This document shows, piece by piece, positions 1-43,194 of a stretch of 64,000 nt of DNA. Origin of the DNA: Somniosus microcephalus (taxonomy: Eukaryota); NCBI GenBank assembly GCA_052327205.1, contig CM126207.1:24490001-24554000 (forward strand), in the 5' to 3' direction. Numbering within the stretch: the stretch's first letter is position 1; each line of letters begins with the position of its first letter. A model generated the notes under the pieces. The model was not told the DNA's origin. It saw only the letters and a list, made by a program, of their open reading frames with translations, and did no database searches. A program made the position numbers and the translations under genes.

Positions 1-2748
1 AGATTCCGTGATCGTACGAAATGTAGCATGCGCGTAACGCCAGGATGACACAAACCATTGTGGACATCCATGAGAGTGGAGGATGACATAGTGGAGCAGA
101 ATGCCCGTGTGAGGGTGTCCGGGGCCACATTCTCCTTGCCAGGCCGATAGAGAATGGTATAACCAAAAGAGGCCAGTTCCATCCTCCAAAGTTGTATTTT
201 ATTATTCTTAATTTTGGTTCGTTTTCGATTATCGAGCATGAAGGCGACTGATCGTTGGTCCGTGATCAACGTAAAGTGCTGGCGAGCTAGAAAATGGTTC
301 CACTTCCGTACTGCCTCTATGATGGCTGTGGCTTCTTTCTCAACCGGAGGATAATGTAGCTCGGCACCTTGTAAGGTCCTGGACATAAATGCTACAGGAC
401 GACCTTCCTGATTCAGAGTAGCCGAGATCGCCACCTCCGAGGCATCACATTCAACCACGAAAGGGAGATTCTCATCAATGGAGTGAAGAGCCGCTTTCTC
501 CAACTGTTTTTTGAGAAGGTTAAAGGCTGCAACAGCCGCTGTTCCCAGTGGAAATGATCTAGCATGCAGCAAGGGTTGGATTTCGTCCGAAAAATGAGGA
601 ATCCATTTAGCGTAGTATGCAAACAGACCGAGAGCCCGACGTAAAGAAGCCGGATTCTTAGGTGACGGGAGCTCTTGGAGCGGGCGAAGTCTTTCTGGGT
701 CTGGCTTAATGATACCATTGCCTACGCAGTAGCCAAGGATGTTGATGGTCGGTTGCGACTCAACAGATTTGGATTCATTCAGGGTCAAATTACGGCGATG
801 GAGGGCATCCCGAAATTTTTGGAGGTTGGAGTCGTGTTCCTGTTGATCGTGACCTGCAATGGTAATGTTATCAAGATAGGGAAAAGTGTCCCTTAGGTTT
901 TCCTGCTTAACCAGGCCATCCATTGCCCGTTGAAAGACAGCCACTCCATTAGTAACCCCGAATGGGAGGTGACGAAATTGGTACAGCCGCCCATTAGCCT
1001 CAAAGGCTGTGTACTGCTTATCTGAGACCTTCAAGGGTAACTGATGATAGGCACTTTTTAAATCGTAAGTTGAGAACACTTTGTATTCGGCCAGTTTATT
1101 AACCATATCATCAATGCGTGGCAATGGGTAGGCGTCCAAGTCGGTATATTGATTGATGGTTTGCGAATAATCGATGCATAGTCGCTGTTTGTGAGGTTTT
1201 AGAGGGTTCTTGACAATGACGACTTGAGCCCGCCAGGGCGACGAACATGGTTCAATGATATCCTCTGCTAGAAGTCGAGAGATTTCAGCCGCAATAAAAG
1301 ATTGGTCTTCCTGATTAAAGCGCCGCGATTTCGTTATTATCGGTTGGCATTGAGGCGGAATACTGGCAAATAATGAGGGTTCATTAAGTGAAGCTGCTGA
1401 TAATGCACAAAATGGTAATTTAGATGGTATATTAGAAATAGTAAGTCCGGGTTTGGATCCACCAAACTCAATGGTGAGTTTCTTATGCTATTTTTGGAAG
1501 TCCAGCCCTAAGAGGAGATCACTACATAAGTCTTTGAGCACCGAAAGTCGGGTGGAGGGATACATACGACCATGAAGTGTCATATCAACAACACAAAAGC
1601 CGGAGATTCTGGTATTAAGTGATGACTGGGCCATCGCAATTGCCTGGTCCGATGGGAAGACATGTAGTTTCAATTTCGCAACAATCTGTTCCTTAATGAA
1701 ACTATCAGTACTTCCTGAGTCAATTAAGGCATCTAAGGTATGCCCTTTAATTGAAATTTTTGTGGCTGCCTGAGACAGGTTCTGTGGGCAAGCAGCTGTA
1801 ATTGGTGTCGTTGCACAGAGAGTGGCTAAAACTCTCGGTGTGCTTCTTCGGGAGAGAGCTCGAGAGGAAGCTTGATAGGTCCTAGCTGGAGCATCTTGAT
1901 AGGCCCTAATTGGGGCAGTTCGGTAGGCCTTAGCTGGATTGGCCCTCGTAGAGGCCCTTGATAGGCAAACTTTAGCAAAGTGTCCTTTTTTCCCCGCAAT
2001 AACTGCAGATTGCATTGCGAGCAGGGCAGGTTTTCCTAGGGTGAAAAGCATCTCCACAAAAGAAGCATTCCTTCCTAGATTGCCAAGAGGCTGCTAAAGT
2101 GGGGTCGTCCTCCTCTTCTTCATCAGAATTATCAGAATTAGATTCCCCCATGATAGGGTTCACCTGAGACCGCTTGAATTGTCTGGTTGCAGCTACAGCA
2201 GCAGATCAAGAACTGGGCAGCTGATAGAGGTCTGCATTTCTCTTTGCCAAATCCAGTGAACAAGCTAGGTCAAAAGCTTTTTGTAGCTCAAGTGTTTTAC
2301 TTTCTAGTAGACGCTGGCGTATAAATGGAGAGGCAATCCCGCAGATGAAAGCATCACGAATCATTTCTTGGCGGTACAGTTCAGCTGAGGCTGCCTGAAA
2401 GTTACAATCTACGCTGAGCCTGCGAAGTTCTTGCAGGAATTCGTCAATTGATTCCCCTGGCCCTTGTCGGGCTGTGGCCAGTAGATGTCTAGCATAGACC
2501 TCATTTGGGGTCTTCGCATACAGTTTCTTAAGTGCCCGAATCACCTCTTCGTAACTATCCCAGTCATCAACATATTCGAACACTTTTGGGGTCACATAAT
2601 TGACAAGTATCTTCAATTTAGCAGGAGCATCCACTTTACATTCATCCAGAAAATTCTCAAAAGTACGATACCAATGCTTCCATACCCTGCCAGCTGCTGG
2701 TGTATTCGGGTCCAAGTCCAGACGAATAGGTCTAAGGATTTTCTCCAT
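1..2748 (-). pseudogene. Gypsy gag-pol polyprotein, disrupted by two nonsense codons and one frameshift
   Basis: ATG at 2748 (MEKILRPIRLDLDP). In-frame TGA at 2206-2208 with gag continuing in frame; 1-nt frameshift in the G/A run near 1985-1995 splits CSYCG/KKGHFAKVC; TAG at 1488-1490 after protease. The same frame then reads as RT-RNase H-IN to the window edge (frame checked at 878, 554, 449, 302, 5). Confidence 0.9.
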
Positions 2749-2831
2749 GATGGGTGGTTCCCTGGATCCTTAACTTCCGAGTTTGTCTGAAGGTCTAGTA
2801 TTTGTCAGTGTAAATACTAAGTTACTTAAAT

Positions 2832-3089
2832 TGATGTAAGAAAAAGGAGACTTACCATCAAGTAACTTTAAAGTAAGCTTTAAGTAACTTATAAACACAC
2901 TATATACAAGAGAGGTCTTTACCATGCCTCTGGTAGAAGCCTCTTACAATACTGAACAGACCAGTATTTATACCAGTCCAACAGGAAGTGACATTTACAG
3001 GAAGTGAGGTATGTACACAGTTCATAGTTCATAGTTCATAGTTCACAGGAAGTGATGACATAACTTCCCGGATGTTATCATTTTTATCA
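2832..3089 (-). repeat. 5' LTR of the Gypsy element (~258 bp)
   Basis: TGAT...ATCA termini; TATAAATA on the minus strand at 2965-2972; three CAGGAAGTG (ETS-like) motifs; short AGTTCAT tandem; CR1 sequence resumes at 3090. An alternative end at ATCA 3080 is possible; the partner LTR is outside the window. Confidence 0.75.
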
Positions 3090-5410
3090 CACACAGTACT
3101 CCAGATGTGGTCTCACCAATGCCCTGTATAACTGAAGTATAACCTCCCTACTTTTGTATTCAATTCCCCTCGCAATAAACGATAACATTCTATTAGCTTT
3201 CCTAATTACTTGCTGTACCTGCATACTAACCTTTTGCAATTCATGCACTAGGGCACCCAGATCCCTCTGCAATCTCTCACCATTTAGATAATAAGCTTTT
3301 TTATTCTTCCTGCCAAAATGGACAATTTCACATTTTCCCACATTATACTTCATTTGCCAGATCTTTGCCTACTCACTTAACCTATCATCCTTTGTAGCCT
3401 CCAAATGTCCTCTTCACAATTTACTTTCCTACCTATCTTTGTGTCATCAGCAAATTTAGCAACCATACCTTCGTTCCATTCATCCAAGTCATTTATATAA
3501 ATTGTAAAAAGTTGAGGCCCCAGCACTGACCCCTGTGACGCACCACTTGTTACATCTTGCCAACCAGAAAATGTCCCATTTATGCCTACTCTCTTTCCTG
3601 TTAGCTAGCCAATCTTCTATCCATGCCAATATGTTACCCTCTACACCATGAGCTTTTATTTTTTGCAATAATCTTTGATGTGGCACCTTATCAAATGCCT
3701 TCTGGAAATCTAAGTACAGTACATCCACCAGTTCCCCTTTATCCACAGCACATGTTACTTCTTCAAAGAACTCCAATAAATTGGTTAAACATGAGTTCCC
3801 TTTCACAAAACTATGTTATCACTGCCTGATTGCCTTGAACTTTTCTAAGTGCCCTGCTATAACGTCTTTAATAATAGCTTCTAACATCTTCCCTATGACA
3901 GATGTTAAGCTAACTGGCCTGTAGTTTCCTGCTTTCTGTCTCCCACCCTATGAATAAAAGAGTTACATTCACTATTTTCCAATCTAATGGAGCCTTCCCT
4001 GAATCTAGGGAATTTTGGAAAATTAAAACCAACGCATCAACTATCTCACTAGCCACTTCTTTGAAGACCTTAGGATGAAGTCCATCATGACCCGGGGACA
4101 TGTCAACTTGAAGCTCCAACAATTTGCTCAGTACCACTTCCCTGGTGATTGTAATTTTCTTGAGTTCCTCCCACCCTTACATTTCCTGATTTACAGCTAT
4201 TTCTGGGATGTTACTTGTATCCTCTAGTGAAGACCGATGCAAAATACCTGTTCAATTCAACTGCCATCTCCTTATTTTCCATTATTAATTCCCCAGACTC
4301 ACTTTTTATAGGACCAACACTCACTTTGTTAACTCTTTTTTTTAAATCTATAGAAACTCTTACTATCTGTTTTTATATTTTTAGCTAGCTTTCTCTTGTA
4401 CTCTGAATTTTTCTCTCCTTGTTAATCTTTTAGTCATTCTTTGCTGTTTTTTATATTCTGTCCAATCTTCTGACCTGCCACCCATCTTTGCACCATTATA
4501 TGCTTTTTCTTTAAGTCTGATACTATCTTTAACTTTTTTAGTTGACCACAGATGGTGGGTCCTCCCCTTGGAATTTTTCTTTCTCATTGGAATGTACTGT
4601 ATATATTCTGTGTATTCTGAAATATCCCCTTAAATGTCTGCCACTGCAACTCTATTGACCTATCCCTTAACGTAATTTGCCAGTTCACTTTAGCTAGCTC
4701 TGCTTTCATGCCCTCATAATTGCCATTATTTAAGTTTAAAATACTAGTCTTGGACCCACTCCTCTCTCTCAAACTGAATGTAAAATTCCATCATATTATG
4801 ATTGCTGCTACCTCGGGGCGCCTTCACTAGGAGGTCATTAATTAATCCTATCTCGTTGCACAATACCAGGTCCAGTATAGCCTGATCTCTGGTTGGCTCC
4901 AGAACGTGCTGTTCTGAGAAACTATCCCAAAAACATTCTATGAACTCCTCATCTAGGCTAACTTTGCCCATCTGAATTTTCCAGTCTATATGTAGATTAA
5001 AATCCCCCATGATTATTGCCATACATTTCTGACAAGCTCCTATTATTTCTTCCTTTATCCTCCATCCTACTGGATGGTTACTGTTAGGGGGCCTGCACAT
5101 CATTCCCACAAGTGACTTCTTGCCTTTATCATGCCGCATCTCTACCCAAACCGCTTCTACATCCTGGTTTCCTGAACTTAGGTCATCCATCTCTATTGTG
5201 CTAATACCATCATTAATTAACAGAGCCACCCTTCACTTTTTCCCAGCTTCCTGTCCTTCCTAAATGTCATGCCTTCAATATTCAGGTCCCAATCTATGTC
5301 ATCCTGCAGCCATGTTTCTGTAATGGCTATTAGATCATACTTATTTATTTCTATTTACAGTTCATCTGTTTTGTTTCGAATGCTACGTGCATTCAGATGC
5401 AGAGCCTTTA
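3090..5410 (-). pseudogene. CR1 ORF2 (endonuclease and reverse transcriptase), fragmented
   Basis: Collinear ORF pieces 4744-5229, 4584-4772, 4381-4587, 3910-4137, 3489-3806, 3087-3353 with many frameshifts; LNARSIRNK endonuclease start near 5400. Confidence 0.9.
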
Positions 5411-28364: not shown

Positions 28365-28619
28365 ACCTGTGTGAGTTCTTTTGTGGATCTTGAGGTTTTC
28401 TGATCTGGCAAAGACTTTGCCGCAGCCAGGGAATGGACAGGGGAATGGTTTCTCGCCAGTGTGGACTCTGATGTGATTTACAAGTTTATATTTGGCTTTG
28501 AAAGGCTTTCCCTCTCTTGGACACTCTTCCCAGAAGCAGATATGGTTCGACTGCTCTGGTCCCCCAACGTGTTCCACTGTTACGTGAGTAACCAGTTCGT
28601 GCATCGTGCTAAAAGTTTT
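28365..28619 (-). repeat. Left arm of a 255-bp near-perfect inverted repeat (partner 42940-43194)
   Basis: Manual alignment of the reverse complement against 42940-43194 gives 251/255 identity with no indels. Confidence 0.95.
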
Positions 28620-29342
28620 GTTGCAAGATTTTTTAGGATTCGTCAACTGTTCGGGCTCTACCCATTTACATATGAGTTCTTGCTTAATGGGCTGCCTCAT
28701 ATAACGAAAGAAGGCCCCGGCCCCATGGTGGGCCGCCATGTTCATGTTCATGGGGCCATAGCTGTGTAGCTGGGTCGAGGCGTAGTGGTCCGATCTGGGA
28801 CTAGTGACCTGGCTGTATTGGTCTGCTCTGCCATACATGTCCCCAGAAAAGCCTAAGCGCATTTGGCCGTTCATTACATGTGCATTGGGAGAAGCGTGGG
28901 TCGTCGCCTGCTCGTGAAGCCCCGGGAAGAGTAGGTGCCCCGCAGCGTCAGTATGTCCATGGGGTCCCGCAAAACTGCCCGCAGCCGCCGCCGAAGCGAA
29001 CAGGCTGTGCCCGGCGCTGGCTGCCGCCGCTTCCCCAAAGCCCCGATTGCGAAACAAAAAGTCCCGGGTCGAGTTGAACGCCGCGCTGCTGTACGAACTC
29101 ACATGGCTGGGATGGTGACCTAGAGCCGCGGCGTAGCCTGGAGCCTGCGACGTGAAGGCAGTTTGACCCGATGCGAGATCGTGAGTGCTGGGGCTGATTT
29201 TAAAAGCACCCATCCCGTCAGCGAAAGGATTTATCCCCAGCCCCACTTCTCGATCGTTGACATCGCCTGTTGAGTGATGTCGGGATGATCCGAAGGTAGT
29301 CACTCCTAGAGTAGGATATTGAGGTCCAGCGTCCAGAAGCAT
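28367..29342 (-). CDS. zic1: Zic1 coding exon 1 (N-terminus, ZOC box, ZF-NC, zinc fingers 1-3); spliced protein 445 aa
   Basis: Starts [10 protein letters not shown] at ATG 29342; [10 protein letters not shown] (ZOC), [14 protein letters not shown] (ZF-NC); phase-1 GTATGG donor after HTG; 976+164+198=1338 nt. Confidence 0.98.
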
Positions 29343-42030: not shown

Positions 42031-43192
42031 ATGAGCATGGATGCTTTGGGGAGTCCGATGATGGACCCATCATTCGCCAAAAGAAACCCAGCGCTGAGAT
42101 TAGTAGATTTGGCAGGAGCTCACCACCATCATCATCACCATCCCCCTCAGAGCATGACAGGCTTCCCGGGGCTCAGCGGCCATCCCCACTCAATGGCACA
42201 CACGCACCCTGGGGAGAGTACTGGAGAAGCCCGCCTGGGGCCGAGTCCATTCGGGCCTGAACACATGGGGCACCCTGCAGCCGCTGCTGCGCTTAAACTC
42301 AGCCCAACCCATCCCCACCACCATCACCACCATCATCATCACCATCATATGGCAGGCCACGCTGAGGTTGTCTCCAATCCAACGGCAGCTTTTGGCCCAG
42401 CGCAGGCAGCAGCAGCAGTCAGTTACTCGGTCTCGCACTCCCACGCCAGCTATACTGCCCAGGCTATCTCGGCAGGTAGAGACTTCCTCATCCGCAGAGA
42501 TCTGACATCCTCAGTCATGCCTGGGCTCACTGATCAATATCCTGGCACAAGTTCTCACCACGGAATGTTTGTATCAACAACAGGTAGCTACCCCGGACAC
42601 CATGGTCACCCCGAGGCTGGAAGCCACTCTTTATTCCCTGGACTCCATGATCAGGCTCCCCATGCAGCCCCAACTGGACACCATCTGAACGGACAGTTAA
42701 GACTGGGGCTACCTGGAGACATGTACGCCAGGTCTGAGCACTACAGCCAAGTGGCAAGTTCCAGGAGTGATCCCTTTGCATCTTCCCCTCTACATGGCTA
42801 CGGTGGCATGAATATTAACATGAACTTAACTGCCCACCACGGTCCAGGTGCATTCTTTCGCTACATGAGACAACCCATCAAGCAGGAACTGATCTGCAAG
42901 TGGACTGAACCGGACCCTGTCACTAAAAAGCCATGCTCAAAAACTTTTAGCACGATGCACGAACTGGTTACTCACGTAACCGTGGAACACGTTGGGGGAC
43001 CAGAGCAGTCGAATCATATCTGCTTCTGGGAAGAGTGTCCAAGAGAGGGAAAGGCTTTCAAAGCCAAATATAAACTTGTAAATCACATCAGAGTCCACAC
43101 TGGCGAGAAACCATTCCCCTGTCCATTCCCTGGCTGCGGCAAAGTCTTTGCCAGATCAGAAAATCTCAAGATCCACAAAAGAACTCACACAG
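42031..43192 (+). CDS. zic4: Zic4 coding exon 1 (N-terminus with poly-His tracts, ZF-NC, zinc fingers 1-3); spliced protein 532 aa
   Basis: [28 protein letters not shown] start typical of fish Zic4/Zic5 types; His7 (42121-42141) and His11 (42316-42348); GTCAGT phase-1 donor after HTG; head-to-head with Zic1. Confidence 0.95.
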
Positions 43193-43194
43193 GT
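42940..43194 (+). repeat. Right arm of the 255-bp inverted repeat (partner 28365-28619)
   Basis: Mismatches only at 42981, 43014, 43054 and 43164. Confidence 0.95.

Follow-up and report, generated by a model that had tools for sequence, protein, structure and literature searches.

A putative primer-binding site complementary to the element's own LTR in a Gypsy retrotransposon lineage of animals

Results

The window, by which we mean the whole stretch of 64,000 nucleotides of Somniosus microcephalus DNA that was analyzed, begins within a young Gypsy LTR retrotransposon of 4557 bp (4.56 kb) whose element strand is the minus strand. Its 5' LTR (2832..3091, minus strand) is 260 bp long, has TG...CA ends, and matches the 3' LTR, located outside the window at L031:4535-4787, with no substitution; the sole difference from window 3091-2832 is an indel of one 7-bp repeat unit. 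A 5-bp target-site duplication, CTGTG (3092..3096, minus strand), was identified by comparing the flanks of the element and recurs after the 3' LTR. The near-identical LTRs and the duplication thus set the LTR as window 3091-2832 and point to a very young insertion. This boundary is exact: it had been proposed in an earlier note on this DNA, and alignment of the 3' LTR left it unchanged, with the duplication as additional support. The insertion target was a decayed LINE (3097..5232, minus strand), recognized by its ORF fragments; LINE sequence resumes after the 3' LTR, and reads connect both LINE flanks across the element. From its motif resemblance, this LINE may be CR1-like. Elsewhere in the window, two inverted copies of 272 nt (28365-28636 and 42923-43194), 96% alike and 14 kb apart, probably represent a dispersed young repeat.

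The coding part (1..2748, minus strand; ORFs and domain search) comprises gag with zinc knuckles, protease, RT with a YLDN motif, and RNase H, and continues beyond the window start into integrase. The first ATG of the element is at 2748. In the window copy, stops at 2206-2208 and 1488-1490 and a frameshift near 1990 interrupt the frame; open frames of ~1300 codons are found in other copies of the family, which is large (1125 first-look candidates, 40 scored). LTRs, target-site duplication, the order PR-RT-RH-INT, and a polypurine tract are those of Gypsy elements, and the best match in a PDB search was the Ty3 RT, which gives no clade name. No chromodomain (PF00385, E ≤ 0.1) was found in the pol of the element or of 5 homologues, and none was listed among 120 homologues. 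The element family is transcribed in a species holding near-identical sequence, two RNA runs of which have reads in all 30 bins (162-nt bins, 90% likeness), with one strand richer across most of the coding part. Twelve molecules of one RNA run end at L031:4599 (equivalent to window 2896); they may be duplicates and were left unused. A sequencing-run search for the element listed no RNA holder, and scans of viral contigs found no relative of it.

We then looked at the junction between the 5' LTR and the leader. On the minus strand, the LTR ends in CTTACATCA (last base at 2832), followed by a single A (2831) and by TTTAAGTAACTTA (2830-2818). This putative primer-binding site (2818..2830, minus strand) thus starts 1 nt after the LTR and, in our pairing search, was complementary at 13/13 positions to an arm located inside the LTR (2879..2891, minus strand). 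The arm, which is the predicted self-primer, was delimited by pairing and motif and reads CTTAAA in the window family, where most relatives have AATAAA or ATTAAA. Leader and arm are identical in 20/20 fetched copies of the family. In 3000 dinucleotide shuffles of the LTR, the longest run was 11, and 0/3000 reached 12 or 13. TGG is absent from the first 20 leader bases, and host tRNA genes for Lys and Cys (the two isotypes compared, among 30 loci) match the site in runs of 4, so the comparison proposed in the earlier note gave no good match within these isotypes. An Rfam search returned a single chance-level match (E 0.66).

The predicted fold of this region (z = -2.43) contains the helix between site and arm, whose ensemble probability is 0.92 if the RNA starts at 2945 and 0.59 if it starts at 2896, and a U5 tip stem (2831..2861, minus strand; 2851-2861 paired with 2831-2840, one bulge), with probabilities of 0.96 and 0.72, respectively. 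The earlier note had described all of these elements from the letters; its positions for the LTR end, the 1-nt gap, the site, and its complement are exact in the sequence, the lack of an initial TGG stands, and the tip stem appears in the fold. It had also pointed to an alternative pairing at 2860-2868, and this 9-nt partner exists, but its probability is negligible (0.00 for a start at 2945 and 0.06 for a start at 2896), and we rejected it as a candidate switch. Fold prediction places two other hairpins, one upstream of the arm at the presumed RNA 5' end (2910..2944, minus strand) and a small one (2864..2879, minus strand) leaving from the 3' end of the arm, i.e., from the predicted cut junction, where a stem also begins in most relatives. 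Window 2818-2828 in the site and 2881-2891 in the arm are near-palindromes around one central base, a possible dimer contact that most relatives do not have.

To follow site and arm through related elements, we used 69 metagenome-contig loci, 8 loci from contigs in bacterial genome bins, and loci of the source genome. A long direct repeat was present in just 17/69 metagenome loci, most others having no LTRs in the contig. The loci from bacterial bins (L174-L181) contain a retrotransposon of animal type, in some cases with two LTRs and a target-site duplication, and probably reflect host contamination of the bins. LTR ends could be defined in 31 elements, in which we anchored the arm by a flanking motif and not by pairing; the motif was present in 29/31, and the two elements without it, L084 (17-nt run) and L094 (run of 5), were dropped before counting. 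All 29 anchored rows have an A at +1, and the helix register begins at +2. Over 23 nonredundant sites, 12.57/13 positions were paired with the cognate arm versus 9.09 with the arms of other elements, and at positions +7 to +14, the values were 7.65/8 and 4.92, with 0/20000 permutations reaching the observed value. The covariation between site and LTR that the earlier note asked about is therefore present, and complementarity is kept in relatives down to 47% RT identity, in the same register and with changed letters.

Since kin share letters, substitutions were also counted on an RT tree of 24 rows (5 duplicate or partial rows of the 29 were left out). The count gave 36 site changes and 34 arm changes in 40 joint steps, 30 of which were double-sided; when the partners were slid by 1 to 3 columns, only 4 to 6 double-sided steps were obtained. 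Compensations occurred even between families that are 95 to 98% identical in RT, such as L089/L093 and L151/L153. G-U pairs made up 1/290 of the pairs in the primer helix versus 39/260 in the U5 stems of the same RNAs, the latter being predicted stems.

In retroelements, the plus strand copies the primer. A self-primed element would thus rewrite its site from the arm in each cycle, which predicts double changes made in one step and few G-U pairs. With a host primer, the site should stay fixed, and a hairpin of structural function only should pass through wobble intermediates and have no fixed register. The observed covariation matches the pattern predicted for a site recopied from its primer, the situation in Tf1, and agrees poorly with a host tRNA. 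We thus consider it probable, on the strength of these sequence comparisons, that reverse transcription is primed with a 13-nt segment of the element's own LTR, in its 5' copy, and not with a tRNA; counting the arm of either LTR copy, self-priming appears highly likely.

Priming by a host tRNA half or another small RNA, with the LTR match as a secondary trait, would have a precedent, as half-tRNA priming exists in Ty1/copia lineages (discussed in part of PMC6317226), and our tRNA comparison covered the Lys and Cys isotypes. Yet at least 23 different site sequences exist, more than ten of them within one genome, each matched by its own LTR, and neither a TGG after the LTR, nor Lys or Cys matches beyond runs of 4, nor an Rfam match of note was found, so that we regard this explanation as very improbable.

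Complementarity to the LTR was also looked for without LTR pairs, in a scan of 25 further loci. Runs of at least 10 were seen in 14 of them, five of which belong to families already counted. Among the 11 misses, 4 became positive with a wider window, and 2 have one mismatch (read by eye); 2 others keep the site, with the arm lost to an interruption, and 3 have no clear LTR end. No TGG site was found behind a plausible or defined LTR end in the lineage, i.e., in the 31-element set and the 25-locus scan. Pairing was imperfect in L094 (run of 5) and in L117, L178, and L197 (11/13 each). The arm of the 3' LTR pairs better in L117 (16) and L178 (12), pointing to decay in these two; it does not restore full pairing in L197, L245, and L094. 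The leaders of some relatives are as short as 16 to 19 nt before the ATG, which leaves no room for another primer site. In one copy of the L083 family (L138:3822-8236), a pol segment of ~1.5 kb between the intact LTRs is inverted; arm and primer site remain intact on the element strand.

We then analyzed the position of the arm within the LTR. The arm is 13 to 16 nt long in the lineage, lies 23 to 79 nt from the LTR end, and terminates with AATAAA or ATTAAA in 24/29 anchored rows. The shortest distance, 23 nt, occurs in L081 and L180, and it bounds the length required for the remainder of R plus U5. This overlap with the poly(A) hexamer raises the possibility that the helix only masks the poly(A) signal of the 5' LTR, for which a partner exists only behind that LTR, and that another primer is used. 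Masking, though, needs neither a fixed +1 register nor pure Watson-Crick pairs (as in the 1/290 count above), and the pairing is retained where the canonical hexamer has been lost (window family, L083, and L085). Moreover, an outside primer would fix the site sequence, yet near-identical families differ in it, and the short leaders hold no second primer site. Masking as the sole role is consequently improbable in our view, less so than a tRNA half.

A TATA-like box was visible in 17/29 rows, all from the source genome, 70 to 90 nt before the arm. In the window, the box (2965..2972, minus strand), recognized by sequence, lies 81 nt before the arm and predicts a start near 2945; a second, weaker TATA-like match in the window family lies 15 nt before the arm. 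Given the 70-to-90-nt spacing, we predict an internal primer located at the end of R and not at the RNA 5' end. The earlier note had listed as a caveat that this TATA would put the start ~50 nt upstream of the complementary segment; the ~50-nt gap between predicted start and arm seems to be a trait of the lineage and not a defect. As a stem starts directly after the arm in most families (fold prediction), the predicted cut falls at a helix junction. A U5 stem adjoining the site is likewise predicted in most families, and the second flank, where present, pairs upstream of the arm.

Weighing against use of the 5' copy, the arm lies away from the predicted 5' end, where the Tf1 primer sits, and it is also present in the 3' LTR. 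Being at the poly(A) signal, the arm is predicted at both RNA ends, and the primer might be the one in the 3' R, belonging either to the same RNA or to a second packaged RNA; a cut there would detach the poly(A) tail, and all of the 5' R would remain available for transfer. Such priming would explain the covariation equally well and avoid a very short transfer overlap. Against it, the local 5' helix, with a probability of ~0.9 or more in most families, would be made first, and in several families, its pairing continues upstream of the arm, within the 5' LTR. We therefore judge priming from the 3' R unlikely, though a stronger contender than masking alone, and favor the arm of the 5' LTR as the primer.

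As controls, we applied the same search to other elements of the genome. Self-runs were ≤5 in 11/11 TGGCGAC tRNA-type elements with defined ends and ≤6 in 5/5 ERV-like elements. Sushi-like chromoviruses, identified by chromodomain or tree position, had an 11-nt self-match at offset 1 in 5/8 cases, the others having 9, 9, and 6. The method thus picks up the group known to self-prime and leaves out the tRNA-primed elements. The +1 register is common to the lineage and to the tRNA-type and sushi-like elements of the genome. An TATTTAAG box lies ~30 nt before the arm in 5/7 sushi-like controls and nearer in two (run cut short or different spacing); the ~30-nt spacing is that expected of a primer at the cap. 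The sushi-like elements L186-L191 and L237-L240 carry the 11-nt self-complementary site, and AATAAA/ATTAAA was absent from the seven LTRs scanned. The genome also contains young ERV-like elements (L226-L233) with ~780-bp LTRs, a 4-bp target-site duplication, and a TGG tRNA-type site.

We then examined the RT relationships and distribution of the lineage. Homologues of 54 to 75% identity numbered 974 at E ≤ 1e-30, and among the 120 listed, the named hosts were a soft coral, sea anemone, shrimp, copepod, nematode, mussel, tunicate, and cartilaginous fish; a catshark protein was 81% identical to another family of the source genome. The careful RT-RNase H tree comprised 25 rows and was rooted on two ERV-like rows, with outgroups all from one genome and no named reference; BEL/Pao loci, tried as a root, gave no alignment over RT and were left out. 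All rows of the lineage fall on a single branch (100/100, stem 0.87); the sushi-like and TGGCGAC-type elements form groups of their own (100/99 and 100/100, respectively), with the base open. The best tree weakly groups it as sister to the TGGCGAC tRNA-type elements (72/84), and forcing it together with the sushi-like elements costs 2.8 log units (AU p=0.174), long branches meeting at the base. By this phylogeny, the lineage is not nested in Tf1/sushi and is not a member of that group.

Covariation, register, and controls thus strongly support the earlier note's suggestion of self-priming outside Tf1/sushi. An independent origin, which the note raised as possible, and shared ancestry with the sushi-like elements are both compatible with the tree, as the AU test does not reject a single clade.

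Discussion

In the papers cited below, self-priming is demonstrated for Tf1 of fission yeast, and for its chromovirus relatives and a single plant copia lineage it has been inferred. In Tf1, bases 1 to 11 of the RNA pair with the primer-binding site, and cleavage by RNase H falls between bases 11 and 12 (per sections of PMC7175516); the primer lies within a three-duplex structure (sections of PMC10085805), and the full primer-binding site is copied at the 3' end in ~50% of cDNA (sections of PMC11042837). The feature described here is real, and we infer that it works like Tf1 self-priming. By analogy, the 5' RNA would fold back onto the primer site and the element's RT/RNase H would cut directly behind the arm, on its 3' side. 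The 3' end so generated would then copy one spacer base, U5, and the 10 to 25 nt of R predicted before the poly(A) site, this remainder of R serving for strand transfer. Plus-strand synthesis would copy the still-attached primer, so that the site would be retemplated from the arm every cycle. The primer would differ from that of Tf1 in carrying a 5' extension of 40 to 60 nt. The same helix likely has a second role in hiding the 5' poly(A) signal, because only the 5' LTR is followed by the partner strand.

Beyond the earlier note, we found that the arm usually holds AATAAA or ATTAAA and lies 70 to 90 nt behind a TATA-like box, versus ~30 nt in sushi-like elements. Tentatively, and with more doubt than for self-priming as such, we propose an ancient, animal-wide Gypsy lineage that invented self-priming independently of Tf1/sushi and turned its poly(A) signal into a primer, one helix silencing 5' polyadenylation, fixing a cut that leaves enough R, and being retemplated each cycle.

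In the literature searched, descriptions of self-priming concern Tf1/sushi, Tcn1, and copia TAR, with none for an animal non-chromovirus Gypsy lineage among the papers cited here. Priming of the lineage was likewise not found in the portions covered of PMC6934838, PMC3601003, PMC5006619, PMC5341516, PMC2774666, and PMC2582038. A second large self-primed Gypsy lineage, in animals, would make tRNA-free priming far commoner than assumed, with hosts spanning cnidarians, molluscs, crustaceans, nematodes, tunicates, and cartilaginous fish. It would bear on which came first, tRNA priming or hairpin priming, and it predicts that silencing by tRNA fragments would be unable to reach these elements. LTR finders that demand a tRNA primer-binding site would undercall them. 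The lineage could also provide a compact test case for the coupling of priming to poly(A)-site choice, and its double-sided, G-U-free substitution pattern a reusable genomic signature of primer templating.

Among known systems, the Mag-like TGGCGAC Gypsy elements share with the lineage a similar size, a single frame, a related first zinc-knuckle spacing, and the lack of a chromodomain, but differ by a TGG tRNA-type site without self-match, YLDD instead of YLDN, and ~30% RT identity. We take these TGGCGAC-site elements to be Mag-lineage-like, with no named reference in the tree, and the size of our element presumably resembles that of Cigr-1. Cigr-1 and MolGy are animal non-chromovirus Gypsy clades of tunicates and molluscs, where homologues of the lineage also occur (Thomas-Bulle et al. 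2018, PMC6238403, in part), and "PBS" is absent from the main text of that paper. The lineage may already be named without its priming having been described. The Ty1/copia TAR lineage (Houba, Osr-1) and plant Tcn1 are likewise predicted to self-prime from complementarity between LTR and primer-binding site (PMC6317226, in part); both are plant elements, TAR belonging to another superfamily and Tcn1 being related to Tf1/sushi, and TAR shows that self-priming is predicted outside chromoviruses, too.

The closest likeness in priming is to Tf1/Tf2 of S. pombe, Tj1, Tosmo, and Tf1/sushi generally, which have a site right behind the 5' LTR, a complement in their own LTR, and no tRNA match, and Tf1/sushi elements also share the flanking U5 stems, which are predicted in the lineage, and the Gypsy domain order (sections of PMC10085805, PMC7175516, and PMC4600332). 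Two tandem elements that we observed (L159:1337 and 5554) share an LTR, with a polypurine tract before it and a primer site after it; they resemble Tf1 tandem structures (PMC11042837, in part), although unequal recombination would explain them too. Unlike Tf1/sushi, the lineage lacks the chromodomain that chromoviruses usually carry at the integrase C-terminus, and its RT-RNase H is ~29% identical to that of the sushi-like elements of the genome. The arm differs as well: in these sushi-like elements, it has 11 nt, lies 154 to 180 nt from the LTR end, and follows the TATTTAAG box by ~30 nt, whereas in the lineage it is longer, overlaps the poly(A) signal, and sits closer to the LTR end and farther behind the TATA-like box. 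As for the Tf1 "pretzel", in which both flanking duplexes are formed by LTR sequence downstream of the primer, a U5 stem is predicted in most families of the lineage, and the second flank, where present, is predicted to pair upstream of the arm.
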